In this document: positions 3,408 to 62,940 of the stretch, piece after piece
Layout: each line of letters begins with the position of its first letter
Position numbering within the stretch: position 1 is the stretch's first letter
NCBI GenBank assembly: GCA_018818785.1
Contig: JAHIRF010000002.1
Span: 67,122 to 131,121 of the forward strand
From: Thermoplasmatota archaeon
GTDB taxonomy: Archaea > Thermoplasmatota > Thermoplasmata > UBA10834
DNA length: 64,000 bases
Direction: 5' to 3'
Notes under the pieces: generated by a model
Databases searched by the model: none
Told to the model about the DNA's origin: nothing
Seen by the model: the letters and a program-made list of their open reading frames with translations, nothing else
Position numbers and translations under genes: made by a program

Positions 3408-3412
3408 CTCAA

Positions 3413-6396: not shown

Positions 6397-6406
6397 CAGA
6401 CACCTC

Positions 6407-6772: not shown

Positions 6773-6773
6773 C

Positions 6774-28137: not shown

Positions 28138-28256
28138 GTGGACCACTGGTGCTCTCGACAAGCGATTAACGAGTAATAACCCTTGCGCGCAATAACCCCG
28201 ATATTCAGCACGTATCTAAGAAAAGGATATATCTGCTGTGATGTCTGGGGGACCCG

Positions 28257-29183
28257 ATGAGCAAATGCTCAGCTCCTGGGAAGATAATACTCTTCGGTGA
28301 GCATGCGGTGGTATTTGGGAAGCCCGCACTAGCGTTGGCTGTCGATCTGAGAATCAAGAGCAGCGTGAGACCGGCCAGCAGCTATCTCGTGAATGGCCGG
28401 CCTATGAACGGCAGGCATCATGGCTATATCTCAGCTGCATTGGATGAAGCGTGGTCTGGTCCCCCTATTGACATAAGGACCCGATCGTGGATTCCGTCTG
28501 GATCCGGGCTCGGGTCGTCCGCAGCTGTGACCGTTGCGACGGTGGGGGCGCTCCTGTCTGAGAAGAACGCATTCGGGCTGGAATCCATTGCGCAAAGGGC
28601 ATTTCGAGTGGAATTGTCGGTGCAAGGGAGGGCGAGCCCGACGGATACCTCGGTGTCAACGAATGGTCGAGGGATTCTTATCTGCCCTGAGAAGATGGAT
28701 AATCATTTGTGGTGCATCAAGGACGGGATTCGCGTCTGGAACATTCACGATTGCGAAGTGCCTGAACTGACATTTGTCATTGGATATACGGGCACTCATG
28801 CCTTAACTGGGCCTTTGGTGAAAGGGGTCCGGAACCTGGTGGAATCGGACGCAGACGCGCGAAGATCAGTCGATTGCATAGGGGAACTGGTCTTGGACGG
28901 CATGGATGCAATGCGGAAGAATGACAAAGTCAGGGTCGGACGTCTGATGACGGAAAACAATTCGCTGCTCGTATCTTTGGGTGTCGGCCATCCAACTCTT
29001 GATTCGCTCATAGATGCTGCGTCGAGCCTTTCATATGGTGCTAAGCTGACAGGGGCAGGTGGAGGAGGAAGCATGATTGCGCTGACCGACCGACCAGCTG
29101 AAGTATGTGATGCTATTATTGATGCAGGCGGAAGACCATACTCGGTCAAGGTCGGATGCGAGGGCGTAAGAATCGAGGATTGA
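28257..29183 (+). CDS. mvk: Mevalonate kinase
   Basis: PGKIILFGEHAVV, PSGSGLGSSAA, GAKLTGAGGGG. Confidence 0.92.
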   Translation: MSKCSAPGKIILFGEHAVVFGKPALALAVDLRIKSSVRPASSYLVNGRPMNGRHHGYISAALDEAWSGPPIDIRTRSWIPSGSGLGSSAAVTVATVGALLSEKNAFGLESIAQRAFRVELSVQGRASPTDTSVSTNGRGILICPEKMDNHLWCIKDGIRVWNIHDCEVPELTFVIGYTGTHALTGPLVKGVRNLVESDADARRSVDCIGELVLDGMDAMRKNDKVRVGRLMTENNSLLVSLGVGHPTLDSLIDAASSLSYGAKLTGAGGGGSMIALTDRPAEVCDAIIDAGGRPYSVKVGCEGVRIED

Positions 29184-48254: not shown

Positions 48255-48293
48255 GTCCTGCAAAGGACCAATGTCCATGGTTTATGTGTTTTC

Positions 48294-49490
48294 TCAGAAA
48301 ACCGTTAGCTTGCCAGCTACGATCTCATCGGTCAGCTTGTATATGGTCGCAAGCCTCTCATCAAAGATCGCTGCGGCTTCCTTCTGGTATTTCTTCTTGT
48401 CCACATTCGGCGCGAATATCATATTGGCGCTCGCCGCCTGTGGTTGATCTATGGGCTTCCCTATCTGAGACAGTATCCTGGTATGGACTTCAAGAATGTC
48501 ACCCTTGCCCATCTTGTATATCTCATCGGCGACTCTGTTAGAGAGCAGGTTGTACAGCTTGCCGACATGTGTCACCGGGTTCTTACCTGCTGATGCCTCC
48601 ATGCTCATTGGTCTCATAGGCGTAATGAGGCCGTTGGAGCGGTTTCCCCTGCCCACAGAGCCGTCGTCCCCGTTCTCCATCGAAAGGCCGGACACTGTCA
48701 GGTAATAGATGTTCTTCTTGTAGTCGTCCGCGGTGTTAACGAACACTCTGAGATTCCTCTTTGTGTACTTTGATGCATAATCCGCGATGCTCTCCCGGAG
48801 TTCGTCTACGACGCTCTTGTAATGGCTCTTGTCTGGGATCTTGGAGGATACCATCGCTGTGGCGACTGTCAGATCGATGTTCGAGCCGTTCCTGCAGGCC
48901 ATGACCTTGACATCCTCGCCGACTTCCGGCATCTTCTTCCAGAGCTTGCCGTTGATATATCTCTCGGTGTCGAGGGTCATCTTCTCAGTCTCGCTGAATG
49001 GTGCAAATCCGACCCCGAACGATGTATCGTTCGCCAACAGTCTCTGCGTTTCGTAGAGGCCAGTCAGATCAACGCTTCCCTGACCGATCATGCAGTCAAG
49101 GACAACGTCCCATTGGACATCGAGATTCTTGCAGGTCTTCTCAAGGTAGGAATATGCAGCCTTCATTGCGACGGTCCTGTACGGAAGACGCTCGCCATTG
49201 ACATTAGTCGTCGCCCTGCCGACCAGGAGTATGTATATAGGTTCGAGGATCGAGCCGCCACCGAACTTTGGCGCGGACTGCCCACCCACTATCTGAGTCT
49301 CGTCAGTGTTGTGGTGCAAGATCCTGCCGTATCTCTCGATATACATCTGAGACAGTGCACGGCTCACACTCTCGGCAAGTCCGTCAGCAATGCTGTCCGG
49401 ATGACCGATGCCTTTTCTTTCGACGAATTCAACAGTCTGCTTCTCAATTGGAGTGTGCGTCAACTCCTCTATTAGAATGTTCCTGTCCAT
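48294..49490 (-). CDS. mat: S-adenosylmethionine synthetase, archaeal type
   Basis: VERKGIGHPDS, HHNTD, ANDTSFGVG, GEDVKVM, GKNPVTHVGKLYN. Confidence 0.96.
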   Translation of the reverse strand: MDRNILIEELTHTPIEKQTVEFVERKGIGHPDSIADGLAESVSRALSQMYIERYGRILHHNTDETQIVGGQSAPKFGGGSILEPIYILLVGRATTNVNGERLPYRTVAMKAAYSYLEKTCKNLDVQWDVVLDCMIGQGSVDLTGLYETQRLLANDTSFGVGFAPFSETEKMTLDTERYINGKLWKKMPEVGEDVKVMACRNGSNIDLTVATAMVSSKIPDKSHYKSVVDELRESIADYASKYTKRNLRVFVNTADDYKKNIYYLTVSGLSMENGDDGSVGRGNRSNGLITPMRPMSMEASAGKNPVTHVGKLYNLLSNRVADEIYKMGKGDILEVHTRILSQIGKPIDQPQAASANMIFAPNVDKKKYQKEAAAIFDERLATIYKLTDEIVAGKLTVF

Positions 49491-49587
49491 GCGCTCGCCT
49501 CGCAGGCTTGAATCCGAAGATATGATAATCATTCTTAATTGTTTCGGATTTAAGCAAAACGGATTCTGAAGGGGTTTGATGGTCCTG

Positions 49588-50859
49588 TCAGTGCTTGTCG
49601 TAATGCTTTCGTCTCTCGGCCCTTGCGTTCCCCTCGGGTATAAGTGCGAATTTCTTACCCGACAGAACACCCGCGACACCTTCTGTGCTCTCTATATTGC
49701 TATAATCCTTGCACATCTTGCAGTTGGGCGGACATGTGCTGACTCGGTCCTTTGGCTCGGGGTACTGGAAAGTGCCTCCCTCGTAGTTCCTTAGCACTAT
49801 GCGTTTGTCTGACATGCTTACGAAGTAATTGGGACTCAGCGGGATCTTCCCTCCGCCACCGGGGGCATCGACTATGAACAACGGTACCGCATATCCCGAA
49901 GTGTGCCCTCTCAGGGCCTCTTGGATCTCCATACCCTTAGCGACCGATGTCCTGAAGTGTTCAATCCCTCGGGACATGTCGCACTGGTAGTAGTAGTATG
50001 GTCTGCATCTCATTTTGACGAGTTCGTGGACCAGTTTCTTCATTATCGTCGGACAATCGTTTATTCCCTTGAGAAGAACGCTCTGGTTTCCGACAGGGAT
50101 ACCCGCGTCTGCAAGCCTCTCCACAGCAGCCTTCGCCTCTGGGGTTATCTCCTTGGGGTGGTTGAAGTGAGTATTGAGCCAGATGGGGTGGTACTTCTTC
50201 AGCATATCGCATAGTTCGGGTGTTATCCTCTGGGGCAGGACGCATGGCGTCCTACTTCCCAGTCTCACGATCTCGACATGATCGATTGCCTGCAGCCTTG
50301 ATATTATGCCTTCCAGGACCTTGTCGGACACGGTCAGTGGGTCTCCGCCTGAAAGCAATACGTCCCGTATCTCTTCGTGCTCTTCGATGTATTTTATGAC
50401 GGCGTCTATCGTGTTGGAATCTCTTTCTGTATCCGTCTGGCCTGCGAGCCTCCTCCGGGTGCAGTGCCTGCAGTACATGCCGCATTGATCGGTTATCAGG
50501 AAGAGCACCTTGTCGGGATATCTGTGGGTCAATCCATGGACGGGTGAATCTATGTCTTCGAACAGCGGGTCCTCCATGTCGTCGTCGCTGAAATCGATCT
50601 CCTTGGCCGTCGGGACCGCCTGCAACCTCACAGGACAATGCGGGTCGTTGGGATCCATGAGTGTCGCGTAGAACGGCGTTATTGCCATCCTGAGAATTCT
50701 CAATGAGTCCCGGACTCCCGCCTCCTCCTCCGGGGTGAGATTGATCACTTGCTTCAATTGATCGACGCTAGTGATCCTGTTCCTCAACTGCCATTTCCAA
50801 TCGTTCCATTCCTCGGGGGTGACGTCCTTCCATAGAGGGATGTCCTTGTAAGACCGCAT
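49588..50859 (-). CDS. kamA: L-lysine 2,3-aminomutase (radical SAM)
   Basis: CGMYCRHCTRRR, LLSGGDP, YQCD and VDAPGGGGK (lysine-binding Asp residues and PLP Lys), C-terminal Cys cluster. Confidence 0.95.
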   Translation of the reverse strand: MRSYKDIPLWKDVTPEEWNDWKWQLRNRITSVDQLKQVINLTPEEEAGVRDSLRILRMAITPFYATLMDPNDPHCPVRLQAVPTAKEIDFSDDDMEDPLFEDIDSPVHGLTHRYPDKVLFLITDQCGMYCRHCTRRRLAGQTDTERDSNTIDAVIKYIEEHEEIRDVLLSGGDPLTVSDKVLEGIISRLQAIDHVEIVRLGSRTPCVLPQRITPELCDMLKKYHPIWLNTHFNHPKEITPEAKAAVERLADAGIPVGNQSVLLKGINDCPTIMKKLVHELVKMRCRPYYYYQCDMSRGIEHFRTSVAKGMEIQEALRGHTSGYAVPLFIVDAPGGGGKIPLSPNYFVSMSDKRIVLRNYEGGTFQYPEPKDRVSTCPPNCKMCKDYSNIESTEGVAGVLSGKKFALIPEGNARAERRKHYDKH

Positions 50860-50895
50860 GAGCACTACCTCGTCAAATGTTCGAGTGACTCAATA

Positions 50896-51072
50896 TTAGA
50901 CTCCGTATTTATCATCTGCTCAGGCTATCGTCGAACTTGTTACGAACGTCGTTCACAGAATACGAAAAAGGGAACATGTGACCACACATAACCATACGGA
51001 TTCGTAAAGCGTTGTCTAAAACGGTTCAGAGATGTCATGTTATTCACCAATGGTTATATAGCCGAATCCGTG
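50896..51072. promoter_or_regulatory. Divergent promoter region with repeated TACG/CGTA operator-like sites
   Basis: TACGGATTCGTA (50995-51006) and related sites abutting both TATA-like boxes. Confidence 0.5.
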
Positions 51073-51175
51073 TTTCGAAAAATTGCCATACCAGACTCGC
51101 AGAATGGCTGCTGACGACCAGTCGCACAAGATAATGCGCGCGGCCGGGCTTGGCGAGCAATGCGAGGGACTTAAC

Positions 51176-52342
51176 ATGAGGAAAGTAGCGATTGTCGGAG
51201 CGGGGCAAAGCAAGTACGGTGAATTTCCCGAGAAGGGGATAAAGGAACTCTTCTTCGAAGCGTACCAGGACATGGCTTCCAGTGTGGATAAGAATTACGA
51301 CCCCAAACTTGTCGAGAGTGCATACATCGGCAACCTGGGATCTGGCGGATTCCAGCTGGGAAACATGTCCGCGCTCGTAGCGGAATACGCCGGACTGCCA
51401 TACATACACACAGTCAGGATTGAGAACGCATGCGCATCAGGCGGCTACGCATTGGTGGCCGCAATTATGGACGTGTTGTCGGGCACCCACAAGATGGTCA
51501 TTGCTGGTGGCGTCGAGAAGATGACCGATGTTTCGGGTATGAAGCAGAAATATTGGCTGGGGGTGTCCGGAGATACTGAGTACGAGAGACTTGCCGGGAC
51601 GACCTTTGCTGGTCTTTACTCTCTGATAGCCCACAGACACATGCACGAGTTCGGGACCAAGAGGGAGCACCTGTCGATGGTGGCCGTGAAGAACCACAAG
51701 AACGGTGCCCAGAACCCGAAGGCCCAGTTCCAGAGGGAGATCTCACTGGAGCAGGCGATGAAGTCTCCAATAGTGGCATATCCACTGAACCTGTTCGATT
51801 GCTGCTCGACGACGGATGGTGCGTCTTCCGTCCTTGTCTGTGACGCTGAGATCGCGAAGCAGTTTACCGACACGCCGATATATGTAACAGGTTTCGGCAC
51901 ATCCAGCGATTACCTGGCAATACATGACAGGGCTAGGACGGTCACTCTGGAAGGCAGCAGACGGGCAGGGGAGCACGCATACAAGATGGCGGGCAGGACC
52001 CCGAAGGACATGAACCTGGCGGAGGTCCATGACTGTTTCACGATTGCAGAGCTCCTTGCAACCGAGGACCTAGGTTTCTGCGAGAAGGGCAAGGCGGGTC
52101 AATTCATTGAGGAAGGCCACACCCAGATAGGTGGCGATATGCCGATTAACCCGAGCGGAGGCCTCAAGTCAAAGGGGCACCCAATTGGCTCCACCGGAAC
52201 GGGACAGGCATACGAAATGTTCAACCAGCTACGTGGAAAAGTTGAGAAACCGGTCCGTCAGGTCAAGGATGCCGAGATAGGGCTTATACACAATGTCGGC
52301 GGGTCCGGCGGTACTGTGTCCGTCTCTATAATGGAAAGGTGA
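51176..52342 (+). CDS. Acetyl-CoA C-acyltransferase (archaeal-type thiolase)
   Basis: ENACASG catalytic Cys, EVHDCF, GHPIGSTG intact. Confidence 0.94.
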   Translation: MRKVAIVGAGQSKYGEFPEKGIKELFFEAYQDMASSVDKNYDPKLVESAYIGNLGSGGFQLGNMSALVAEYAGLPYIHTVRIENACASGGYALVAAIMDVLSGTHKMVIAGGVEKMTDVSGMKQKYWLGVSGDTEYERLAGTTFAGLYSLIAHRHMHEFGTKREHLSMVAVKNHKNGAQNPKAQFQREISLEQAMKSPIVAYPLNLFDCCSTTDGASSVLVCDAEIAKQFTDTPIYVTGFGTSSDYLAIHDRARTVTLEGSRRAGEHAYKMAGRTPKDMNLAEVHDCFTIAELLATEDLGFCEKGKAGQFIEEGHTQIGGDMPINPSGGLKSKGHPIGSTGTGQAYEMFNQLRGKVEKPVRQVKDAEIGLIHNVGGSGGTVSVSIMER

Positions 52343-52348
52343 ATCTAG

Positions 52349-53365
52349 ATGGCAATAGGAATATCTGGATACAGCGTATATGTCCCGAGGCTCAGGATCA
52401 AGAAGGAAGATTATGCCAAGGCATGGGGATCATTCCAGGCACCAGGCGTGAGTGAGAAGTCCGTGATGAGCTTCGATGAGGATGTGCTCACGGCAGCCGC
52501 GAAAGTCTCCAGAACGGCCCTTGCATCAGTCCCCATAGGGCAAGAGAAGGTAACGCGATTCGCCCTGGCATCCACCTCCGCGCCGTATCTCGAGAAGATG
52601 CTCTCGGGGATGGTAGTTGTGAACGTAGGGATGCCGAGTTCGACTTTCTGCAGTGATCATACCTCATCTACGAGGGCCGGCACTGAGGCCATGATATCCG
52701 CCTTCGAGCACTTGAAAGCCGTCCCGAGCGGGCTTGCGGTAGTCGCTGCTGCAGACGCGCCAAAGGCGAGCATGTGGGATTCCACCGAGCATGCACTGGG
52801 TGCCGGAGCAGCCGGTTTCGCGCTCTCATCGGATGACCTCATCGCAGAGTTCGAAGGCTCTGCATCTTTCGCCATGGAACACTTCGGAGAGCGCTTCAGA
52901 CCGTCGAACGAGGATATGATCATAGACTTGGGCGTGAAGAAATTTTCACAGAAGGCGTTTGTAAGTGCCACGACGAAGGCGTGCTCCTCGCTGATGAAGA
53001 AGATCGGGTCAAAACCTGAGGATTATGCCCACGTCGTCATTCAGCAACCAGATGCCAAGACCCCGGCATCTGTCGCAGGCAAGATGGCCTTCGATGCTAC
53101 GAAGCTCGAATCTGGTATGATATCCACAAGCCTTGGAGACCTCGGCGCTGCATCCACACCCGTTGGGCTAGTGTCAGCACTCGAGGCGGCGAAGGTAGGC
53201 GAGAGGATCATGGTCGTATCCTATGGCTCCGGTGCAGCCAGCGATGCCCTGAGCTTCAAGGTAGTGAGTGAGAAGAAAACGAAGCCGAGTTTGAAGGAAC
53301 AGCTCGAGAAGAAGGAGTACATCGACTACATCCAGTACCTCAAACTCAAGGGAGCGCTAAAGTGA
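52349..53365 (+). CDS. HMG-CoA synthase homolog lacking catalytic residues
   Basis: Full-length archaeal HMGS fold (DED, SYGSGA.SDA, KEYIDY..Y) but Glu, Cys and His positions are substituted. Confidence 0.88.
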   Translation: MAIGISGYSVYVPRLRIKKEDYAKAWGSFQAPGVSEKSVMSFDEDVLTAAAKVSRTALASVPIGQEKVTRFALASTSAPYLEKMLSGMVVVNVGMPSSTFCSDHTSSTRAGTEAMISAFEHLKAVPSGLAVVAAADAPKASMWDSTEHALGAGAAGFALSSDDLIAEFEGSASFAMEHFGERFRPSNEDMIIDLGVKKFSQKAFVSATTKACSSLMKKIGSKPEDYAHVVIQQPDAKTPASVAGKMAFDATKLESGMISTSLGDLGAASTPVGLVSALEAAKVGERIMVVSYGSGAASDALSFKVVSEKKTKPSLKEQLEKKEYIDYIQYLKLKGALK

Positions 53366-53376
53366 GGTGAACAGAT

Positions 53377-53802
53377 ATGGCACATGTTTCAGTCCCAATG
53401 TATTGGAGGACCATCCCCCAAAGGTACAAGATGATAGGCCAGAAGTGCAAGAAGTGTGGAGCGGTCAACTTTCCCCCGAAGGGTGTGTGCAAATACTGCA
53501 ACGCCTCTTCAGAGTTCGAGGAGATCCAGCTCAGTGGAAAGGGCAAGATACACACCTTCGTGCTGATAGGGGCCGGCGGTGCTCCACCAGAGTTCGCAGA
53601 ACAGATGAGGGCCGGCGGGTCCTATCCCGTCGCGATCGTCGAGCTCGCGGAAGGAGCCAAGGTCATCGGTCAGATGACCGATGTCAATCCGAAAGATGTC
53701 AAGTTTGACATGCCCGTCCGTGCTGAGTTGAAGAAGGTCTACGTCGAAGAGGGCGTAATCAGATATGGTTTCAAGTTCACACCTGATTTGGAGGGGAACT
53801 GA
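53377..53802 (+). CDS. DUF35 Zn-ribbon/OB-fold protein
   Basis: CKKCG..NFPP..VCKYC, GVIRYGFKF. Confidence 0.93.
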   Translation: MAHVSVPMYWRTIPQRYKMIGQKCKKCGAVNFPPKGVCKYCNASSEFEEIQLSGKGKIHTFVLIGAGGAPPEFAEQMRAGGSYPVAIVELAEGAKVIGQMTDVNPKDVKFDMPVRAELKKVYVEEGVIRYGFKFTPDLEGN

Positions 53803-53803
53803 T

Positions 53804-54721
53804 ATGGATTCCACGAAATTGATGACAATGAAGGATGCTGTGTCCAAGTTCGTCAAGGATGGAGATGCGGTGTACCTGGCCGGGTTCACTCACATGATCC
53901 CGTTCGCTGCAGGACATGAGATCATCAGGCAGAAGCGTAAGGACCTGACATTATGTAGGGCGACTCCTGATATCATCTATGACCAGATGATTGCAGCAGG
54001 CTGTGCCAAGAGAATGATGTTCAGCTATGCAGGAAACCCTGGCGTGGGCTCACTCAGATGCTTCCGAAGGGCCCTCGAGAAGGGTGTCCCGAAGCCCATC
54101 GAGATTGAGGAGTATACTCACTTCGGTCTTTCGGGGAGATTGTTTGCAGGAGCTACCAAGATGCCATTCCTCCCGATGAGGACAAATTTAGGCTCGGACC
54201 TTCCCCCAGAGAACCCTATGATGAAGACCATCAAGAATCCGTACACGGGCGAGGAAGTCTCGATCGTTCCGCCATTGAACCCGGATGTTGCCGTAGTGCA
54301 TGTGCAGAGGGCTGATGCGAAGGGCAACTGCCATATCTGGGGCATAACTGGCGAGCAGAAGGATGCGGCGTTCGCTGCCAAGAAAGTCATCATAAGCTGT
54401 GAGGAGATCGTGGACGAATCTGTTATCCGATCGGACCCGAACAGGACTCTGATACCAGATTTCGTCTCGCATGCCGTAGTATGCGAGCCCTGGTGTGCCC
54501 ATCCATCATATACGCAGGGATATTACGACAGGGACAACGAGTTCTACATGCAATGGGACGACATCACGAAGGAGCATGAGACGACTATGAAGTACCTGGA
54601 TGAATGGGTGTACGGAGTAGAGGACCGAGCTGCATACATGAAGAAGCTCTCGTCCGAGAAAGTGTTGAAGCTCCTTCCAAAGGCCGCTTACAGCGCGCCT
54701 GTGAACTATGGGAGTGTTTGA
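53804..54721 (+). CDS. CoA transferase subunit A (GctA/CatI-like)
   Basis: AGFTHMIPFAAGHEIIRQ, GNPGVGSL, HVQRAD, HPSYTQGYYDRD. Confidence 0.92.
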   Translation: MDSTKLMTMKDAVSKFVKDGDAVYLAGFTHMIPFAAGHEIIRQKRKDLTLCRATPDIIYDQMIAAGCAKRMMFSYAGNPGVGSLRCFRRALEKGVPKPIEIEEYTHFGLSGRLFAGATKMPFLPMRTNLGSDLPPENPMMKTIKNPYTGEEVSIVPPLNPDVAVVHVQRADAKGNCHIWGITGEQKDAAFAAKKVIISCEEIVDESVIRSDPNRTLIPDFVSHAVVCEPWCAHPSYTQGYYDRDNEFYMQWDDITKEHETTMKYLDEWVYGVEDRAAYMKKLSSEKVLKLLPKAAYSAPVNYGSV

Positions 54722-54734
54722 GGAGGTCATGAAG

Positions 54735-55496
54735 ATGACAGATGTTTCACCAAGCGAGCTGATGGTAATAGTCGCTGCGAGGGAACTCAAGGACGGAGAG
54801 TCTGTCTTGGTCGGTGTCGGAATACCGAACCTCGCTGCCAACCTCGCGAAGAAGCTGCAGGCACCGGGACTCAACATGGTATACGAATCCGGCGCAGTCG
54901 GATCCAACCCGAGCAGGATGCCCTTGTCGATAGGCGACCCATGCCTTGTGACTGGTGCGAAGAGCGTATGCTCTATGTACGAGCAGTTCGCATATTATCT
55001 CCAGGGCGGGAGAATCGATGTAGGTTTCCTAGGAGGGGCTCAGATCGACAAGTACGGCAACATCAACTCGACGATAATAGGCAATTACAAGACCCCGAAA
55101 GTGAGACTACCAGGAAGTGGCGGTGCTTGCGATATAGCCTCGAACGTGAAGAAGATCATAGTGATCACCCCCCATGAGAAGCGCAGATTCGTGGAGAAGG
55201 TCGATTTCAAGACGAGCCCCGGCTTCATGGATGGAAAAGAATCCTGGAAGAAGCTGGGACTTCAGGGCGGTGGCCCATATGCGGTCGTCACCAACCTAGG
55301 CACGATGAAGTTCGATGAGGTCACTGGAGAGATGACCCTCGTATCCTTGCATCCGGGTGCTACCGTTGAGGTGATCAAGGAGAACACCCCGTGGGATCTG
55401 AAGATCTCGCCGAAACTGGAGAACACGCCACCACCGACCGAGAGGGAGATCTCTACACTGAGAGCGCTCGATCCGGATAACATCTACCTTGGGTGA
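54735..55496 (+). CDS. CoA transferase subunit B (GctB/CatJ-like)
   Basis: VGVGIP, YESG catalytic Glu, GGAQIDKYGNIN, RLPGSGGA. Confidence 0.92.
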   Translation: MTDVSPSELMVIVAARELKDGESVLVGVGIPNLAANLAKKLQAPGLNMVYESGAVGSNPSRMPLSIGDPCLVTGAKSVCSMYEQFAYYLQGGRIDVGFLGGAQIDKYGNINSTIIGNYKTPKVRLPGSGGACDIASNVKKIIVITPHEKRRFVEKVDFKTSPGFMDGKESWKKLGLQGGGPYAVVTNLGTMKFDEVTGEMTLVSLHPGATVEVIKENTPWDLKISPKLENTPPPTEREISTLRALDPDNIYLG

Positions 55497-55502
55497 TCTC
55501 AG

Positions 55503-56870
55503 ATGCCTCCATATGACGCCGTGGCCGAATACAAGGCCAAGACGCAGAAGAGCGCAAAATGGTTCGAGTTCGCGAAGGAGTACCTGCCTGGCGGGGTGAC
55601 GGGGAACGTGAAGTTCTATGCGCCATACCCGATATACGCGAACAAGGCGAAAGGGTCACACATCTGGGACCTGGATGGGAACGAATACATCGACTACATG
55701 CTGTGTTTCGGCCCGATGATACTCGGGCATGGCCATCCGAAGGTGCATGAGGCCATCATAAAGCAGCTAGAAACTGATGGAACGGCGATATTCGGTGCTC
55801 CACACGAGATGGAGGCAAAGATGGCGCAGCGCCTCGAGAAGATCTTCCCATGCGCAGAATATGTTCGTTTCACAAACTCTGGACTCGAGGCGACCCTTCA
55901 CTCGCTTAGAATCGCCAGGGGATACAAGAAGAAGAACAGGATCGCTAAGTTCGAGGGGCACTATCATGGATGCTACGATGAGGCGCTCGTGAGCCTGACC
56001 CCGAGCGAAGAGGTCGCTGGACCAGAAGCCGCGCCTCAGGCTGTCGCATGCTCTATGGGAACATCGGAATACACACTACAGAGTACACAGGTGCTCCCGT
56101 TCAACGATATCCATGACACGATCCGACTATTGAAGGCCCACAAGAACGACCTAGCGGCCGTCATCATGGAACCGGTGCAGCGTGGTTTCATTGAAGGGGA
56201 GCCGGAGTTCCTTAAGGCGGTCCGTGAGACCACCACAGAGCTGGACATCGTACTCATATTCGACGAGGTCATGTCCGGTTTCAGGATGGATAAGCTCGGT
56301 GGGGCACAGACCATGGTCGGAATAACTCCGGACCTGATGTGCCTCGGGAAGATCATTGGTGGTGGATTCCCCTGCGGCGCATTCCTTGGAAGGGAGGATA
56401 TAATGGATGTCGTCAACCCTGTCACCCGCGGAAAGGAGAACAGGGTGTTCCATGGAGGTACCTTCAACGGGCACCCGACGATATTGGCAGCAGGCATGGC
56501 AACCATCGACGTGCTGGAGCAGCCTGAGACCTATCCGTACCTTATGAGGATCACGGACAGGTTCCAGGATGGATTGAACGACCTGTTCCAGAGACTTGGA
56601 TTCAATGCGAAAGGCATGGGTCCGGGGTCGACGTTCAATGTCCTGTTCGGCAAGGATGGTCAGAATCTGGACGATGTCCGCGATTACAGGCACACCCTCA
56701 AGGCGGATGAAACCGCACGGAAGAAGTTCGATTTCGGTTTGCTCGCGAGGGGTCTGCACTTCCATCCAGACAAGCCGTTCTACACATGCACTGAGCACAC
56801 TGATGAGGACATCGACAACACCCTGGTAGTTGCGGAGGAAGTCCTCAAGAAGATGAAGTCTGCGATGTGA
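55503..56870 (+). CDS. Class III aminotransferase, glutamate-1-semialdehyde aminomutase-like
   Basis: DLDGNEYIDY, NSGLEA, FEGHYHG, FDEVMSGFR, GKIIGGGFP. Confidence 0.9.
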   Translation: MPPYDAVAEYKAKTQKSAKWFEFAKEYLPGGVTGNVKFYAPYPIYANKAKGSHIWDLDGNEYIDYMLCFGPMILGHGHPKVHEAIIKQLETDGTAIFGAPHEMEAKMAQRLEKIFPCAEYVRFTNSGLEATLHSLRIARGYKKKNRIAKFEGHYHGCYDEALVSLTPSEEVAGPEAAPQAVACSMGTSEYTLQSTQVLPFNDIHDTIRLLKAHKNDLAAVIMEPVQRGFIEGEPEFLKAVRETTTELDIVLIFDEVMSGFRMDKLGGAQTMVGITPDLMCLGKIIGGGFPCGAFLGREDIMDVVNPVTRGKENRVFHGGTFNGHPTILAAGMATIDVLEQPETYPYLMRITDRFQDGLNDLFQRLGFNAKGMGPGSTFNVLFGKDGQNLDDVRDYRHTLKADETARKKFDFGLLARGLHFHPDKPFYTCTEHTDEDIDNTLVVAEEVLKKMKSAM

Positions 56871-56901
56871 GAATGGAACGCGGGTTCGAGGGTGGCGGCT
56901 G

Positions 56902-57762
56902 TCATACCTCGACCGTCAACTTTCCTTCAAACGCTTTCTCTGCGGGACCGGTCATGACCGCTCTCGCATTTTCATCGATTTCTATGACGAGCATTCCGCC
57001 TAGGGTCTTGACGTTGACCGGGCCTTGCTGTATCCTATCAAGCATCAACGAGGCTGCTGCACACGCAGTCGAACCAGTCCCACAGGCCATGCTCTCATTG
57101 TAGACTCCACGCTCATATGTCCTCACACTTATATCGTGAGCTCCTGTGATCTGGACATAGTTGATGTTCATCCCCTTCGGGAATCGTTTCCTGTCGCTAT
57201 TGACATGCGTTCCGATCTCCACCATCGGGACCGATCTGATGTCATCTGTGAAGATTATTATGTGCGGCTCGCCAGTATTAAGAAGCGATGCTTTGATAGT
57301 AGAATCGCCAATCGATAGGTCTATCGACATCATGGAGTCCTCCGGGTCGCCTTGGTCTGTGATATACTGGGCGAGATCCTTCCGTTGGGTCCTGACCAAT
57401 CCCATATCCACCCTGATCCCTTCAGGTGTGCGCTCGGCATGTTTGACGCCGTCTTTCGTCAAGACATCGACAGCAGTCATGTCGAGCTTCTCCATGAGAA
57501 ACGCCGCCACGCATCTGAGTCCATTCCCACACATATCTGCCTCGTTACCCGCGGGTTCGAACAGGCGCATCGATCCGTCCACTCCGGGAGCTTTCTCGAC
57601 GAAGAGCACTCCATCTGCGCCTACCCAGAAATGTCTGTCCCAAAGGAACTTCGCCATCTCGCTTCGGTGGGCATCAGGTATCCTGTCATCATCCATCTCA
57701 TCCTTGAGGATGAAATCGTTTCCACAGCCCTGATATTTCTCGAAACGGAACTCGTACCTCAT
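56902..57762 (-). CDS. dapF: Diaminopimelate epimerase family protein
   Basis: GCGNDF, GADG, EADMCGNG, GEPH, YERGV, ACGTG; both catalytic Cys present. Confidence 0.9.
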   Translation of the reverse strand: MRYEFRFEKYQGCGNDFILKDEMDDDRIPDAHRSEMAKFLWDRHFWVGADGVLFVEKAPGVDGSMRLFEPAGNEADMCGNGLRCVAAFLMEKLDMTAVDVLTKDGVKHAERTPEGIRVDMGLVRTQRKDLAQYITDQGDPEDSMMSIDLSIGDSTIKASLLNTGEPHIIIFTDDIRSVPMVEIGTHVNSDRKRFPKGMNINYVQITGAHDISVRTYERGVYNESMACGTGSTACAAASLMLDRIQQGPVNVKTLGGMLVIEIDENARAVMTGPAEKAFEGKLTVEV

Positions 57763-57887
57763 CATGTCGATTAACGTGGAGATATGATATAATCCTTGCC
57801 AGAGCGACGAACTGTTAAATAATCAGCTCAGAATGACATAGAATACTGAGATCCTATCTCCCTAGGACTGGTCTTTGGAGGCATCTT

Positions 57888-59498
57888 ATGCACGATATCC
57901 TTATTCGGAACGGCAAGGTCATAGACGGAACGGGCTCACCTGGCGTTATGATGGATCTTGTGATCGATGGAACCAAGATCGGGAGATTATACAAACCTGG
58001 AGATGGCAAGGGATCCATGGAAATAGATGCCGAAGGCCTCGTGGTCTGCCCGGGTTTCGTAGACATTCACACTCATTCTGATTTCAGCCTATTGGGATGC
58101 CCGCTCGCGGAGAGCAAGATACGTCAAGGAGTCACGACTGAACTCTTGGGCAATTGCGGGGGCTCAGCTGCCCCCATTATCGGAGCAGCGAGGAAGCAGG
58201 CTATGGATTATGCAAAGAAGCTCTGGGTCGATGTGACCTGGTCTAGCTTCGACGAATATCTTCTGCATCTATCTGATGTGAGGACCTCTGTCAATGTTGC
58301 ATCACTCGTTGGCGCGGACACGCTGAGGCTTGGCGTGATTGGGGCGAATGACACTCTGGCAACCGAGAATCAGCTACGGCAGATGAACGAGTTATTAGCG
58401 CAGGCCATGATCGAAGGCGCCTATGGCCTCTCATCGGGTCTGATATACGCTCCAGGATGCTTCGCATCAACAGACGAGCTGACATCCCTCGCATCGACTT
58501 CGGCCTCCTTGGGTGGGTTCTATGCGAGTCACATCCGAGGAGAAGGGAGGACCGTCGTGAAAGCGGTGGCCGAAGCAATCAAGATAGGTCGAGATGCAGA
58601 CAGTCGTGTCCAGATATCCCATCATAAGGCGACAGGGATCGACAACTGGGGGCTGGTGTCCAAGACAATAACCATGATCGAGGCTGCAAGGTCAGAGGGC
58701 GTCGATGTCGTCTTCGACGTATATCCATACACTGCGTCCTCTACCTGGCTCAATTCAATTCTCCCGCCGGGCATCCGAGACGGTGAGACGGATTCCATAT
58801 TGAAGAGACTTGGAGATGAGAAGACTAGGGAAGAGATCAAGCGCGCGTTTCAGAACAAGGACACAGACTGGGAGAACACGGTCGCAGAGGATGGTTGGGA
58901 CAGAATAGTACTGATCGGGCTGAAGAGCGAGAAGTATGGCATGTTCGAGAACAAGTCCATATCCGACGCAGCATCCGCGCTGAATGTCAGCCCGGACGAC
59001 CTCGCGCTCGATATACTCGCAGAGGACTATAAGGGGGCAATCGCGATATTCCACGAGATATCCGAGGATGACGTTAAGACGGTCATCAGCCACCCGCTAT
59101 CAGCCATAGGTTCGGATGGTGAGGCCGAGGCCCCATATGGGCCGACAGGAGACTCGGCGACCCATCCCCGATCCTACGGGACTTTCCCCAGGGTCATTAG
59201 GCGATATTCGATCGAGATGGGACTATTCCCCGTGGAGGAAGCCATTCGAAAGATGACCTCATGGCCAGCTGAACGAATTGGTCTAGATGACCGTGGAACA
59301 ATTGCCAAGGGGATGGCCGCTGATGTCGTGGTATTCGATCCGGACAAGATCAGGGACATGGCCACGTTCGAGGATTCTCACCGGTATCCTGAGGGTATTG
59401 TCCATGTATTGGTGAACGGACAGATCACCATCCAGGATGGAGAACATACGAAGGAGCGAGCGGGACAGGTATTTAGACATAAGCCGCGCGTATCCTGA
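57888..59498 (+). CDS. N-acyl-D-amino acid deacylase (amidohydrolase)
   Basis: PGFVDIHTHSD, QGVTT..GNCG, SHIR, ISHHK, DVYPY, GSDG, HPRSYGTFPR. Confidence 0.93.
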   Translation: MHDILIRNGKVIDGTGSPGVMMDLVIDGTKIGRLYKPGDGKGSMEIDAEGLVVCPGFVDIHTHSDFSLLGCPLAESKIRQGVTTELLGNCGGSAAPIIGAARKQAMDYAKKLWVDVTWSSFDEYLLHLSDVRTSVNVASLVGADTLRLGVIGANDTLATENQLRQMNELLAQAMIEGAYGLSSGLIYAPGCFASTDELTSLASTSASLGGFYASHIRGEGRTVVKAVAEAIKIGRDADSRVQISHHKATGIDNWGLVSKTITMIEAARSEGVDVVFDVYPYTASSTWLNSILPPGIRDGETDSILKRLGDEKTREEIKRAFQNKDTDWENTVAEDGWDRIVLIGLKSEKYGMFENKSISDAASALNVSPDDLALDILAEDYKGAIAIFHEISEDDVKTVISHPLSAIGSDGEAEAPYGPTGDSATHPRSYGTFPRVIRRYSIEMGLFPVEEAIRKMTSWPAERIGLDDRGTIAKGMAADVVVFDPDKIRDMATFEDSHRYPEGIVHVLVNGQITIQDGEHTKERAGQVFRHKPRVS

Positions 59499-59504
59499 AT
59501 CCAA

Positions 59505-60710
59505 CTAGCCAGATATGTCCATGGCGGTCTTGGCGTACACGTGCATGCACTTCTGCAGGTCGTCGACGAGCACGTATTCGATCCTCGAGTGCGCACCCTT
59601 CCCTCCAGGACCAAATATGACTGTGGGGGTCTTCCCGAAATGAGTCAGGAGAGCCGCATCCGTCCATCCCCAGAAGCTTGTCAGCTTCGCTGGTTTGCCC
59701 GTGACCGTCTTGACTGATTCGCGGAGGGATTTGACCAGCCTATGCTTGACAGGGACGACGTTCGGCACGTGCGTCATGGTCTTCATGTTAGTCGAATCAC
59801 GCTTGAGCTCTGCCTTGAATCGAGGATCATCACGCTTGAGCTCGTCGAACAGTTTGTATATCTCCTTGAACACCTGCTGCAAGTCTTCCTCCGGTGTCCA
59901 GCGCCTATCCATCTTCACCACACAATGATCGGCGACTGAACTGGGCTGTTGACCACCCTGGATCAAACCGACATTGAGAGTGGGCGGGTCGGTATGTGCG
60001 CTCTTCCTCTCGCGAATGCGCGGCAAGAGCTCAGTATCCAACAGGTTCACGAACTTCGCAGCCATCGATATCGCATTTACGCCCTGGGCCGCTTGTCCAC
60101 CATGTGCCGCCTTCCCGTAGAAGTGCACTTCCAGCCATTCGAGGCCTCTGTGGGACGGTTGGATCTCCAAATCTGTGGGCTCCCCTACGATAGCCATGTC
60201 CGCCTTTGGACCTCTTATGACAATATCCTCTGTGCCCTCGCTCCGTTCCTCTTCTCCCACGACCGCAGTGAGATACACATTTCCTTTCAGGTCTACCTTG
60301 GCGCGGTCTAGTGCGAGCATGGTTGCTGCCATTGCCCCTAGGCCACCCTTCATGTCTAGCGCGCCTCGTCCGTACAACTTCCCACCCTGCACCTTTGGGG
60401 TGAACGGTGGGATATCCATATCATACGGGGGTACCGTGTCCAGATGCCCATTTAGCATTAGACTGCTCCCGCTTCCCGACCCCCTGAGCGTCGCTATGAC
60501 GTTGTATCTGTCCTTCTCGACCTTTCTAAGCTTTGAATCGATCCCCTCATCTGTCAGGAACTCGTGCAGGAACTCCGCTATCTCTTTCTCGCGGGTAGGT
60601 ACCTGGCTATGACTCGGTATCCTGACAAGGTCCTTGACCAATGATTCGATCTCCGATCTCGGGACCGCTCGTTTGACGTTATTGAAAGTGTCTGTTCTCT
60701 CGACCTTCAT
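59505..60710 (-). CDS. M20 family deacylase (ArgE/DapE-like)
   Basis: NGHLDTV, GRGALDMKGG, GEE, GEPT, GKAAH, AHS. Confidence 0.93.
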   Translation of the reverse strand: MKVERTDTFNNVKRAVPRSEIESLVKDLVRIPSHSQVPTREKEIAEFLHEFLTDEGIDSKLRKVEKDRYNVIATLRGSGSGSSLMLNGHLDTVPPYDMDIPPFTPKVQGGKLYGRGALDMKGGLGAMAATMLALDRAKVDLKGNVYLTAVVGEEERSEGTEDIVIRGPKADMAIVGEPTDLEIQPSHRGLEWLEVHFYGKAAHGGQAAQGVNAISMAAKFVNLLDTELLPRIRERKSAHTDPPTLNVGLIQGGQQPSSVADHCVVKMDRRWTPEEDLQQVFKEIYKLFDELKRDDPRFKAELKRDSTNMKTMTHVPNVVPVKHRLVKSLRESVKTVTGKPAKLTSFWGWTDAALLTHFGKTPTVIFGPGGKGAHSRIEYVLVDDLQKCMHVYAKTAMDISG

Positions 60711-60867
60711 TCAATCGACCATCTATGTGCCGCTTCGGCAGCCTGGAGCAATTGTCCCACACACTAAAAAAGTATCTCATGCGCTCAGCAGACGCTATTT
60801 AAGTAGATGGTCAAAGAGTTTGAGGGGTTTGGATCGATAGACCTTCCGAATGGCTCAATCATACCGT

Positions 60868-61968
60868 CTATTTGGCCTGTCCCTTCTCGAGGTGACACGA
60901 GACCCAGTGGCCTTCCGAGACGAAAACCGTGGCCGGAGCTTCCTTCCGACAGATGTCCATCACAAATGGGCATCTCGGGTGGAACCTGCATCCAGGTGGC
61001 ATGTTCGACGGGTCCGGTCTCTCACCCTTGAGGATGATCTGGTTTCGCCTCATCTCAGGGTCTGGGGTAGGAACGACGGATATCAGGGCCTTGGTGTAAG
61101 GATGCGCCGGATGCTTGACGACCTCTTCAGTCGGTCCAAGCTCCACGATCTTGCCCAGGTACATGATGCCTATCCTGTCGCTGAACACATATGCCACTCC
61201 CAGGTCGTGCGTTATGAACAGGAATGCGAGACCTTTGTTGTCTCTCAGGTCGAGCATGAGCTTCAAGATCTCAGACCTGATTGACACATCGAGCATTGAC
61301 ACCGGTTCATCGGCCACCAGGAACTCTGGCTCAAGCACGAGGGACCCTGCTATGCCGACCCTCTGCCTCTGACCACCAGATACTTCATGGGGATATCTCC
61401 ACATGAAATCCTTCGGGGGCCTGAGACCCGCATCCTCGAGTGCCTTCACGACCCTCTTTTCCCTCTCCGCTTCAGTCGCGCCAATCCCATTGACCACCAA
61501 CGGCTCGGCGACTATGTCATAGACCGACTGCTTCGGATTGAGCGATTCGTATGGGTCCTGGAAGATTATCTGCATCTTCTGGCGAAGCTTTTTCATCTTG
61601 CTCTTATGGAGCGCACGGACATCTATCCCGCCTTCGGCGGTCATCTTCTCCGCCTGCGCCTTCGTGATCTTTCCCTTGGCAAGAGCATCAGATATCATGT
61701 CTTTGAGGAGAATCTCCTTGCCTTTGCCATAGTACTTGACGCTTCCGCCGGTTGGCTCGACGAGCCTGAGAATCCCCTTTCCCGTGGTGGTCTTGCCGCA
61801 TCCCGATTCACCGACAAGGCAGAATATCTCCTTCTCCTTGATGTTGAACGATACGCCATCCACTGCTTTCACATATCGCTGCTCTTTCGAGACGAGACTC
61901 TCGATGAATCCTTGTCTCACTGGGAACCAGACCTGCAAGTCCTTGACAACCAGAATATCCTTAACCAT
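60868..61968 (-). CDS. Oligo/dipeptide ABC transporter ATP-binding subunit (OppF/DppF-like)
   Basis: GESGCGKT, FQDP, SGGQRQR, ADEP, GCRFHPRC. Confidence 0.93.
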   Translation of the reverse strand: MVKDILVVKDLQVWFPVRQGFIESLVSKEQRYVKAVDGVSFNIKEKEIFCLVGESGCGKTTTGKGILRLVEPTGGSVKYYGKGKEILLKDMISDALAKGKITKAQAEKMTAEGGIDVRALHKSKMKKLRQKMQIIFQDPYESLNPKQSVYDIVAEPLVVNGIGATEAEREKRVVKALEDAGLRPPKDFMWRYPHEVSGGQRQRVGIAGSLVLEPEFLVADEPVSMLDVSIRSEILKLMLDLRDNKGLAFLFITHDLGVAYVFSDRIGIMYLGKIVELGPTEEVVKHPAHPYTKALISVVPTPDPEMRRNQIILKGERPDPSNMPPGCRFHPRCPFVMDICRKEAPATVFVSEGHWVSCHLEKGQAK

Positions 61969-61974
61969 ATCAGA

Positions 61975-62940
61975 TCACCCCTTCATCGGTGGCACGAAAT
62001 TACATGCAGCCCAGTGCCCTGGCTTTATCTCCACGAGCGGAGGCTCCTTCGTCTTGCAGATGTCCTGCTTCATGAAGCACCTGTCATAGAACCTACAGCC
62101 CTTTGTTGGATTGATCAGGTTCGGTGGATTACCTGCGATCGATGCCGGCATCTTCTTCTCACCGTGAATATTCGGGAAAGCCGCGATCAGTCCCCTTGTG
62201 TAGGGATGGTGGGGGTCATAGAAGACCTCGCCCGCAGGAGCCCTCTCGACTATCTTCCCGGCGTACATGATTGCCAATACGTCACAGGTCTCGGCGAGAA
62301 CGGACAGATCATGGGAGATGACGATCATGGCCAGGTCGAGATCCTTCTGAAGGCTCTTGAGAAGTGCTATTATCTGCGCCTGTATCATCACATCGAGTGC
62401 CGTTGTGGGTTCGTCCGCAATCACAAGTCGGGGCTTGCATGCGAGTGCCATCGCGATCATGACTCTCTGCCTCATACCGCCGCTGAACTCGTGCGGATAC
62501 TCCCGTATCCTGCTCGGGTTGATACCCACCATCTCGAAGAGCTCCTTGACGCGCTTCAATGCGACCTCTTCATCCACCTTCTCGTGTAGAATGATAGGTT
62601 CGATGATCTGCTCGCCAACGCGCTTGACTGGGTTGAGAGCGTTCATCGCACCCTGGAAGATGATGGATATATCCCTCCACCTGATCGCACGGAGCTTGTC
62701 GCCCGTAACCCTTGCCATGTCCTGGCCCATGAAATTGATCTTTCCTCCAGCGATATATCCGTTTGCTGGCAGAAGCTTCATGATGGACAGAGCCGCGGTG
62801 GTCTTCCCACAACCGGACTCTCCGGCTAGACCCAAGGCCTGACCCTTGTCCAGGTTGAAATCGATGCCGTCGACTGCTTGCAGTGTTCCTTCTTGCGTCT
62901 TGAAATATGTCCTTAACCCTTGAATTTCTAGTAAGGCCAT
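61975..62940 (-). CDS. Oligo/dipeptide ABC transporter ATP-binding subunit (OppD/DppD-like)
   Basis: GESGCGKT, SGGMRQR, ADEPTTALD, GCRFYDRC. Confidence 0.93.
   Translation of the reverse strand: MALLEIQGLRTYFKTQEGTLQAVDGIDFNLDKGQALGLAGESGCGKTTAALSIMKLLPANGYIAGGKINFMGQDMARVTGDKLRAIRWRDISIIFQGAMNALNPVKRVGEQIIEPIILHEKVDEEVALKRVKELFEMVGINPSRIREYPHEFSGGMRQRVMIAMALACKPRLVIADEPTTALDVMIQAQIIALLKSLQKDLDLAMIVISHDLSVLAETCDVLAIMYAGKIVERAPAGEVFYDPHHPYTRGLIAAFPNIHGEKKMPASIAGNPPNLINPTKGCRFYDRCFMKQDICKTKEPPLVEIKPGHWAACNFVPPMKG

Follow-up and report, generated by a model that had tools for sequence, protein, structure and literature searches.

A six-gene operon of a Thermoplasmata archaeon, divergent from a gene for lysine 2,3-aminomutase (kamA), looks to us like a catabolic module free of vitamin B12, in which a beta-amino acid, most likely the beta-lysine made by KamA, would be converted into acetyl-CoA and a shortened acyl-CoA; judging from the gene content, we regard the chances of this reading as about even. 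The operon lies in a stretch of 64,000 nucleotides (the window, G000:C9:67122-131121) of a metagenome-assembled genome of 1.97 Mb in 12 contigs, which is 94.5% complete. On the plus strand it encodes, in this order, a thiolase, a protein resembling 3-hydroxy-3-methylglutaryl-CoA (HMG-CoA) synthase (the HMGS-like protein), a DUF35 protein, subunits A and B of a CoA-transferase (ctfA and ctfB) and a class III aminotransferase. On the minus strand, mat, a gene for methionine adenosyltransferase, and kamA are divergent from the operon, with a spacer of 310 nt between kamA and the thiolase gene (thl).

The proposed route and its enzymes

How could these enzymes act together? A CoA-transferase, a transaminase and a thiolase are translationally coupled here without a dehydrogenase or hydratase, and a transaminase could supply a thiolase directly only by beta-transamination to a 3-oxoacyl-CoA, so that the set would suit a route from a beta-amino acid through a 3-oxoacyl-CoA to thiolysis; and because the genome holds two lysine 2,3-aminomutases, with no known consumer of beta-lysine found, beta-lysine is the obvious candidate. 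In the first step, KamA would convert L-lysine into (3S)-3,6-diaminohexanoate (beta-lysine), from which the CoA-transferase, of the glutaconate (GctAB) type, would form beta-lysyl-CoA, with acetyl-CoA or, cyclically, the product 4-aminobutyryl-CoA as donor. The aminotransferase, which resembles glutamate-1-semialdehyde (GSA) mutase and is hence called GSAM-like, would then pass the 3-amino group to 2-oxoglutarate, yielding 6-amino-3-oxohexanoyl-CoA; these two steps could also run in the reverse order, via the free 3-oxo acid. In the fourth step, the thiolase would use CoA to cleave this intermediate into acetyl-CoA and 4-aminobutyryl-CoA, with the HMGS-like and DUF35 proteins serving as scaffold only. 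A final CoA transfer would free 4-aminobutyrate (GABA) for the GABA-transaminase-like enzymes of the genome, which reach a score of 495.9 against TIGR00700, below its cut-off of 506.65. Every substrate in this scheme is our inference, and so are the sequence of the CoA-transfer and transamination steps, the cycling of CoA and the functional connection with kamA.

What the sequences themselves show is the identity of KamA, the intact thiolase motifs, the dead state of the HMGS-like protein, the GctAB family of the CoA-transferase, the separation of the aminotransferase from HemL, the structure of the operon and its recurrence as a unit in two families. Genes were called from a list of open reading frames (ORFs) together with Pfam and NCBIfam profile matches with curated cut-offs, and structural relatives from matches to the Protein Data Bank (PDB), given in bits; on this evidence, the genes named in an earlier note on this DNA are present where it placed them. 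Successive operon genes are spaced by 6 nt, by 11 nt, by an overlap of 38 nt (longest ORF), by an overlap of 14 nt and by 6 nt, gaps and overlaps that bear out the description of the operon as tightly coupled.

KamA carries the CxxxCxxC motif of the radical S-adenosylmethionine (SAM) cluster as CGMYCRHC (residues 128-135). The lysine-type residues ascribed to it in the earlier note, YQCD (293-296) and DAPGGGGK (333-340; in VDAPGGGGK), are confirmed and have the same letters as in the aligned Clostridium enzyme (PDB 2A5H, which covers residues 10-418 of KamA); the lysine of GGGGK is the one for pyridoxal phosphate, and we take D293 and D330 of the Clostridium enzyme to be the two aspartates that hold the epsilon-amine of lysine. 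Among the sister aminomutase models in NCBIfam, KamA exceeds the cut-off of the AblA equivalog TIGR03820 (Table 1) and stays below those for glutamate (480 against 650) and arginine (437.7 against 600). By these features, the product of kamA is convincing as a bona fide lysine 2,3-aminomutase. Another 2,3-aminomutase of the lysine type, 65% identical and with an AblA score of 596.6, is encoded at G000:C1:138887-140194 (L056:9887-11194) among housekeeping genes (Dph6, RpiA and a histidine kinase), and both copies occur in most genomes of the family to which this archaeon belongs (f1). The idea that mat supplies the SAM for KamA appears weak: mat, which follows kamA on the minus strand after about 97 nt, has no second copy in the genome (a single match in tblastn) and is a housekeeping gene, so that its adjacency says little, and KamA regenerates its SAM. 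The family match of Mat begins only at residue 64-66 of the long ORF, hence the real start must be a later one.

Aligned with PDB 6esq_A, the thiolase has its motifs intact, CxS as CAS, with the cysteine, HDxF as HDCF and GHx as GHP, and is predicted to be catalytically competent; the match begins at residue 32 of the longest ORF, which places the likely start at 51176. The HMGS-like protein was compared with the canonical HMGS of the same genome (29% identity), and its description as a dead HMGS holds, with three residues of the E-C-H-N tetrad replaced (Cys by Thr, His by Gln, Asn by Asp) and only the Glu kept; in two of three aligned orthologues, the position of the catalytic Cys is taken by Ser. 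It scores 180 against TIGR00748, below the cut-off of 353, its closest PDB match is PhlA (5m3k), and a structural role like that of PhlA is probable. The genome has its canonical genes for HMGS, thiolase and DUF35 grouped on contig C5 (C5:204090-206709), which makes the set in the window a diverged second copy, with 48% identity between the two thiolases. An HMG-CoA reductase and a GHMP (mevalonate-type) kinase are encoded in the window at 26857-29183. For bacterial HMGS/ACAT/DUF35 complexes without the E-C-H-N tetrad, a recent report states that no HMG-CoA is made, and that the PfACAT complex, in which CxS, HDxF and GHx are intact, splits acetoacetyl-CoA and forms neither acetoacetyl-CoA nor HMG-CoA (PMC12960953, 2026). 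By these criteria, the complex encoded in the window would be of the thiolysis-only kind.

The closest solved relative of both CoA-transferase subunits is the glutaconate CoA-transferase GctAB of Acidaminococcus fermentans (PDB 1POI). The beta subunit has its ESG glutamate, which we take to be the catalytic one, aligned with the ESG of 1poi_B, a hallmark of class I enzymes with two subunits, and the scores are far below the NCBIfam cut-offs for 3-oxoacid transferases. Of the earlier designation as CoA transferase A and B, the two subunits stand, and the type is that of glutaconate CoA-transferase, not of AtoAD or ScoAB. Other solved members of the family carry the PDB labels 'glutaconate CoA-transferase family' (5MZW series) and 'probable CoA-transferase' subunits (6CO6 series); as these are presumably the decarboxylase AibAB and the ring-cleaving hydrolase IpdAB, which do other chemistry, transferase activity is presumed for the pair encoded here.

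Could the aminotransferase be a true GSA mutase (HemL), a possibility that the earlier note had regarded as fatal to its proposal? Its score against the hemL model TIGR00713 is below the cut-off (Table 1), with 644.8 reached by a true HemL from locus L033, and in a tree of 93 rows it stands among uncharacterised metagenomic proteins, apart from the clade of true HemL. The lysine motif for pyridoxal phosphate, LGKIIGGG, is kept; in place of the HemL motifs GGVNSPVR and PSQFE stand GGVTGNVKFYAPYP (pattern GGVTGNVKFYxPYP) and PD--KPFY, at sites where all five true HemL rows keep SPxR (SPVR or SPSR) and (F/Y)E (QFE, AFE, KFE or KYE). The residues of the HemL substrate site are, we assume, Arg32 and Glu406. 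In the genome, at its completeness of 94.5%, ALAD/HemB was not found and HemA gave nothing above 25 bits, and the absence of hemA and hemB likewise argues against HemL. By sequence and genome content, then, the aminotransferase is not a GSA mutase, and we propose that it is a beta-amino(acyl-CoA):2-oxoglutarate aminotransferase.

A precedent is Kat, described as a HemL-like 3-aminobutyryl-CoA:2-oxoglutarate aminotransferase, adjoining an acetoacetyl-CoA thiolase in a host without porphyrin genes (Perret et al. 2011, PMC3149608). The same context is seen here, with a HemL-like class III enzyme next to a thiolase in a genome without hemA and hemB. No Kat model is among the best 25 NCBIfam matches of the aminotransferase, and the ESM Atlas labels it at family level only ('GSAM/aspartate aminotransferase family'). 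The L033 protein was at first suspected of being Kat-like and turned out to be a true HemL by its score. Contig C3 encodes a GSAM-like paralogue, 40% identical, next to an alcohol dehydrogenase. Metagenomic proteins at least 66% identical to the aminotransferase form more than 120 clusters, and the sequencing runs that share part of this DNA are, going by their labels only, sediment and groundwater metagenomes, none of those listed being of RNA.

As the earlier note had observed, the window contains no kamDE, kce or ablB. Across the genome, AblB (TIGR03827) had no match in a search whose positive control in M. acetivorans worked, and Kce/BKACE was not found in a search that had a positive control; KamD (PF09043) was found neither in the genome nor in 401 genomes of the phylum, a weak negative, as it never matched in controls either. 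KamD and Kce are thus the members of the classical lysine fermentation set that were looked for and not found, KamE, Kdd and Kal not having been searched.

Conservation and co-occurrence with kamA

Is the operon tied to kamA in other genomes as well? Species-representative genomes contain 21 Thermoplasmata loci with an orthologue of the aminotransferase (66-97% identical), and in all 15 whose upstream sequence is long enough and unbroken, mat and kamA are divergent from the full operon; five of the other six end too early, and one (L029) is broken by 100 N at that point. L029, which is without kamA, mat and thl, was therefore dismissed as a counter-example. The linkage of kamA called for in the earlier note is conserved, as inherited synteny and not as independent evidence. 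Within the order of this archaeon, the aminotransferase is present in 43 of 49 genomes, all of family f1, and in none of three genomes of the sister family, which has only a KamA-family protein of 46-51% identity; wherever kamA1-type genes and the aminotransferase share a contig in this order-wide search, they lie about 6 kb apart. G444, of the same genus, has neither the aminotransferase nor kamA1 and was dismissed as evidence, because the essential single-copy mat is also gone, pointing to a gap in assembly or binning. In a 401-genome sample of the phylum, no orthologue of the aminotransferase exceeded 43% identity.

A second family with the operon, f69, belongs to another order; it was found in a 401-genome sample of the class and scored in 44 genomes. 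Its operon agrees with that of the window in all six genes and in their order, with identities of 79% for the thiolase, 62-66% for the HMGS-like protein, 77-84% for DUF35, 77-81% for CtfA, 72-81% for CtfB and 63-67% for the aminotransferase. It adjoins neither kamA nor mat and sits between oppDF and a pair of amidohydrolase and second-aminotransferase genes, with kamA on other contigs (in G709, the operon on C11 and kamA on C6 and C17). kamA is present in 12 of the 44 genomes, and the operon-type HMGS-like gene and ctfB are both found in the same seven; all seven are kamA-positive, and the operon occurs in none of the 32 kamA-negative genomes (Fisher p = 2e-5, ignoring kinship). This co-occurrence is suggestive and is not significant after correction for kinship. 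The proposal of the earlier note thus withstood two of its own refuting conditions, that the aminotransferase be a true GSA mutase and that kamA linkage be lost with kamDE, kdd and kce elsewhere, of which KamD and Kce were looked for. In a tree of canonical HMGS, the kamA-positive rows of f69 are not one clade (approximately unbiased test, p = 7.5e-5, for a group named post hoc), and the operon-positive rows stand in at least two places. AblB was above cut-off in none of the 44 genomes. A further pair of GctAB-like genes, with 48-52% identity to ctfB, was seen in 10 of the 12 kamA-positive and 3 of the 32 kamA-negative genomes (Fisher p = 6e-6, ignoring kinship).

Between the two families, the operon proteins are more similar than KamA (58-63%) or OppD (60-66%), which suggests that the operon was transferred laterally. 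In G709, a TnpB-like ORF (L160:7684-9009, with a Cas12f1-like TNB domain) lies directly upstream of the operon, and in three f69 genomes a gene for tRNA-Val(CAC) (L157:11107-11180, L159:9033-9106, L162:11553-11625) is only a few hundred bases away from kamA, hinting that both loci, operon and kamA, may have arrived laterally.

The spacer between kamA and thl may hold a shared control element. It contains a TATA-like box on the kamA side, GTATTTATC at 50905-50913, one on the thiolase side, GGTTATATAG at 51052-51061, and between them the hexamers TACGAA (50941), TACGAA (50961) and TTCGTA (51001). Boxes and hexamers are kept across 10 loci of the own family, the remaining spacer drifting, and in the whole 1.97-Mb genome at least three such hexamers within 80 nt occur only here. 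As hexamer density alone would lead one to expect about 0.4 such clusters by our estimate, the argument rests on conservation and not on the count, and by this conservation the spacer is a candidate operator for a common regulator. TACGAA was also considered as a marker of a wider regulon and was dropped, as there is no other cluster in G000 and none upstream of thl or kamA in f69. An Rfam scan of window positions 48000-58000 at E <= 1 gave no match.

Flanking genes and related modules

The features of the locus and of its downstream flank are collected in Table 1.

Table 1. Features of the kamA locus and its flank, in window coordinates
Feature	Coordinates	Strand	Evidence
mat, archaeal-type methionine adenosyltransferase	48294..49490 (real gene, approx.; long ORF 48294-49679)	-	PF01941 556 bits; NF003364 595 vs cut-off 553
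kamA1, lysine 2,3-aminomutase (radical SAM + PLP, pyridoxal phosphate)	49588..50865	-	TIGR03820 598.3 vs cut-off 525.4; PDB 2A5H 575 bits
Shared divergent control region, candidate operator	50866..51175	.	TATA-like boxes and conserved hexamers
Thiolase (SCP2/archaeal ACAT type)	51176..52342 (longest ORF from 51083)	+	NF004720 483 vs cut-off 420; PDB 6esq_A 310 bits
HMG-CoA-synthase-like subunit without catalytic Cys, His, Asn	52349..53365	+	PDB 5m3k 149.5 bits, 6esq_I 145 bits
DUF35 scaffold protein (zinc ribbon and OB fold), predicted	53377..53802	+	PF12172 and PF01796
CoA-transferase alpha subunit, GctA type	53765..54721	+	PF01144; PDB 1poi_A 165.7 bits
CoA-transferase beta subunit, GctB type	54708..55496	+	PDB 1poi_B 176.4 bits; ESG kept
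GSAM-like class III aminotransferase, not HemL	55503..56870	+	PF00202; TIGR00713 362.8 vs cut-off 527.3
DapF-family epimerase, orphan, possibly operon-associated	56902..57765	-	TIGR00652 219.9 vs cut-off 114.65
D-aminoacylase-like amidohydrolase, possibly operon-associated	57888..59498	+	PDB 1M7J 276.5 bits
M20 ArgE/DapE-family deacylase, possibly operon-associated	59505..60710	-	TIGR01910 278 vs cut-off 217.6; PDB 7UOI 127 bits
oppF and oppD, peptide-type ABC ATPases	60868..62940	-	Family matches; flank the operon in both operon-bearing families

The DapF-family epimerase is present in 17 of the 21 related loci and absent from four that keep the operon. Lysine biosynthesis was considered as the reason for this gene and the 'DapE-like' M20 gene next to the operon and was ruled out, as neither dapA nor lysA was found in the genome; beside a D-aminoacylase-like hydrolase, the epimerase may serve the use of D-amino acids or of diaminopimelate from cell-wall debris. 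Relatives of the amidohydrolase, 38-41% identical, stand beside aminotransferase-like genes (L057, L058) and beside the operon in f69, and genes for the amidohydrolase, the M20 deacylase and an Opp-type transporter accompany the operon or relatives of the aminotransferase in three gene arrangements (window 57888-62940; L057 and L058; L147-L161). Through these flanking hydrolases and the transporter, the operon may be supplied with its substrate as an N-acyl compound or a peptide.

Parts of the operon recur elsewhere in other company. A genome of family f5 that is 95% complete (G356) has an aminotransferase (38%), ctfA (53%) and ctfB (46%) in a row, with genes for an amino-acid permease and an amidase running the opposite way from them. 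The metagenomic contig L057 combines an aminotransferase (51%) with an M20 peptidase, an amidohydrolase (41%), a peptide-binding protein and ctfAB (56% and 63%), set among genes for MttB and corrinoid proteins, and L058 is similar. In L060, an aminotransferase of 65% identity adjoins an S58 (DmpA/BapA-family) peptidase, and in L109 a thiolase and DUF35 adjoin an aminotransferase of 37% identity. From these arrangements, the operon looks like a combination of reusable modules, with amide hydrolases and transporters as frequent companions.

Uninterrupted genes of the MttB family recur near GSAM-like aminotransferases, in the window at 16726-18267 (minus strand) and at G000:C3:45002-46435, at a distance of 2.4 kb from the paralogue on C3; L057 and L058 have them immediately next to the aminotransferase-like genes, along with genes for a corrinoid protein and a RACo-like activator. 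A connection with methylated-amine metabolism is possible. Upstream of mat, the plus strand encodes a protein of 1619 aa (43395-48254) with an N-terminal DUF835 domain and long coiled-coil matches of the SMC/Rad50 kind, which is kept in this position in the own family with only 32-44% identity in distant members. Further features of the window are a chemotaxis cluster at 2323-10231 (CheD, CheC, CheA, CheB, a methyl-accepting protein and CheR) and a 400-aa ORF at 61387-62589 (plus strand), antisense to oppF and oppD and without a family match, which is probably no gene.

Alternative readings and known systems

A number of observations weigh against assigning the operon to beta-lysine. The adjacency of kamA in the own family counts as one inherited event, because synteny there spans about 20 kb and includes unrelated neighbours, the DUF835 protein and RNase Z among them. 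In f69, the kinship-corrected sign test had only three independent pairs and was not significant; the marker tree is that of one gene, canonical HMGS, from 31 of the 44 genomes and G000; and five of the 12 kamA-positive genomes are without the operon (completeness 64-93%, two at 93%). Given these operon-less genomes and the second kamA in its housekeeping setting, KamA would therefore have another role or sink. The upstream regions of thl and kamA in f69 gave no TACGAA motif, which leaves the candidate operator without support across lineages. The aminotransferase-ctfAB module also occurs in G356, where no homologue of kamA was found at E <= 1e-30; in other families ctfAB, in some cases as a fusion, stands with genes for an SCP2-type thiolase, DUF35 and an acyl-CoA dehydrogenase, the aminotransferase being absent. 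The substrates of GctAB are C5 dicarboxylates, and we know of no characterised relative of GctAB that acts on beta-lysine. Finally, the proposed intermediates are prone to cyclise, 6-amino-3-oxohexanoyl-CoA to a pyrroline and 4-aminobutyryl-CoA to 2-pyrrolidone, and would need to be handled by enzymes or by N-acylation. The B12-independent lysine route put forward in the earlier note thus draws support from gene content, from the non-HemL aminotransferase, from KamD and Kce not being found and from the analogy to thiolysis-only complexes; the non-significant link to kamA and the kamA-less G356 speak against it.

What else could the operon do? The same chemistry may act on another substrate, provided by the neighbouring transporter, hydrolases and epimerase, with kamA as a mere neighbour, a reading that we hold to be rather unlikely. 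Candidates would be N-acyl or peptide-bound beta-amino acids, 3-aminobutyrate, beta-glutamate or a dicarboxylic beta-amino acid derived from diaminopimelate. This would agree with the dicarboxylate type of the CoA-transferase, with the recurrence of amidohydrolase, M20 or amidase genes and transporters next to aminotransferase-like genes (L057, L058, G356, the f69 flanks), with the S58 peptidase adjoining the L060 aminotransferase, with the module of G356 and with an operon-adjacent DapF that is an orphan in a genome without dapA and lysA. It is less easily reconciled with the adjacency of kamA throughout the own family and the restriction of the f69 operon to kamA-positive genomes, and the single candidates meet difficulties of their own: both KamA paralogues are of the lysine type, leaving no glutamate 2,3-aminomutase for beta-glutamate, DapF is missing from some operon-keeping loci, and a source of 3-aminobutyrate is not evident, with Kce and KamD not found.

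The earlier note had also allowed that the operon is only the lower half of classical lysine fermentation, with the aminotransferase as Kat, the thiolase acting on acetoacetyl-CoA and the CoA-transferase on acetoacetate and butyrate. The window thiolase is indeed closest to acetoacetyl-CoA thiolases, next to one of which the HemL-like Kat is encoded (PMC3149608). However, Kce/BKACE was not found in the genome by a search whose positive control worked, KamD was found neither there nor in the phylum genomes (without a positive control), 3-aminobutyryl-CoA has no visible source, and the CoA-transferase is of the GctAB and not the AtoAD type, so that this reading is highly improbable. A non-catabolic complex (a second condensing complex of the mevalonate type, a PhlACB-like C-acyltransferase or reverse biosynthesis of a beta-amino acid), for which the architecture of HMGS/ACAT/DUF35 complexes and the PhlA match of the HMGS-like protein could be cited, is hardly credible either, since the lost HMGS tetrad precludes HMG-CoA formation and leaves no active HMGS to pull an unfavourable condensation, the canonical complex is encoded elsewhere in the genome (C5), and, according to PMC12960953, the PfACAT complex is limited to thiolysis and the Friedel-Crafts acylases (PhlACB/SmaATase) additionally lack in their ACAT unit the HDxF motif, which the window thiolase keeps as HDCF.

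Returning to the degradation of beta-lysine, we tentatively envisage a fuller scenario, which we hold to be possible though short of probable: an abundant sediment family of Thermoplasmata, and a subset of f69 that apparently received the operon laterally, would ferment lysine without B12 by this route, recycling CoA through GctAB and leaving the cleavage to a repurposed thiolase complex of the mevalonate type with its dead HMGS, and the flanking transporter, hydrolase and deacylase might feed in scavenged N-acyl or peptide-bound beta-lysine, such as the N-epsilon-acetyl-beta-lysine of methanogens. Anaerobic lysine degradation is textbook B12 chemistry, relying on KamDE. As it has no hemA and hemB, the organism cannot make corrinoids by the usual route, and for such a host a pathway free of B12 would be ecologically sensible. 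Literature searched by the names of the intermediates (beta-lysyl-CoA, 6-amino-3-oxohexanoyl-CoA and synonyms) gave no description of the route, and 4-aminobutyryl-CoA had one match, a Streptomyces genome note. In this literature, which returned Kat, dead-HMGS complexes and work on osmolytes, the route is undescribed, and it is plausible as a variant of lysine fermentation built from known kinds of enzymes. If true, the direct cleavage of beta-lysine at C3 would add a new pathway to catabolism, with a new class of natural substrates for acyl-CoA beta-transaminases and glutaconate-type CoA-transferases, and would give a first assigned role to an archaeal thiolase/DUF35 complex whose HMGS is dead. 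Given the many metagenomic clusters of the aminotransferase and the sediment and groundwater labels of the runs that share part of this DNA, it could matter for amino-acid turnover in sediments.

How does the locus compare with characterised systems? In the synthesis of the osmolyte N-epsilon-acetyl-beta-lysine by methanogens, AblA acts together with AblB; KamA is above the AblA cut-off, but no AblB was found. The 3-oxoadipate branch offers an analogy of logic, in that PcaIJ, a CoA-transferase, is followed by PcaF, which thiolyses a C6 3-oxoacyl-CoA to acetyl-CoA and a C4 acyl-CoA; the enzyme families differ, and the input here would be an amino acid. GctAB of A. fermentans has subunits similar in size to those of the window (318 and 262 aa), whereas the partner enzymes in the window imply a beta-amino or 3-oxo acid and not a dicarboxylate. 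The archaeal mevalonate complex (6ESQ/6ET9) and the PfACAT complex have the same three subunits and the same gene adjacency as the thiolase, HMGS-like and DUF35 set, and PfACAT, PhlA and MucA likewise have an HMGS unit without catalytic residues. In contrast to the mevalonate and PfACAT complexes, the set described here is a second copy that shares its operon with a CoA-transferase and an aminotransferase, and in contrast to the characterised dead-HMGS complexes, which are bacterial, it is archaeal.

The nearest counterpart is the Kat variant of lysine fermentation, which also begins with lysine 2,3-aminomutase, has a HemL-like enzyme that adjoins a thiolase, and transaminates a beta-aminoacyl-CoA to a 3-oxoacyl-CoA for thiolytic cleavage, as proposed here (PMC3149608). 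In the route that we propose, the substrate of transamination would be the C6 compound beta-lysyl-CoA itself, with no step by KamDE, Kdd, Kce or Kal, the cleavage would fall to a tripartite thiolase complex with a dead HMGS and DUF35, and CoA would be transferred by a GctAB-type enzyme; the likeness to Kat is one of context.

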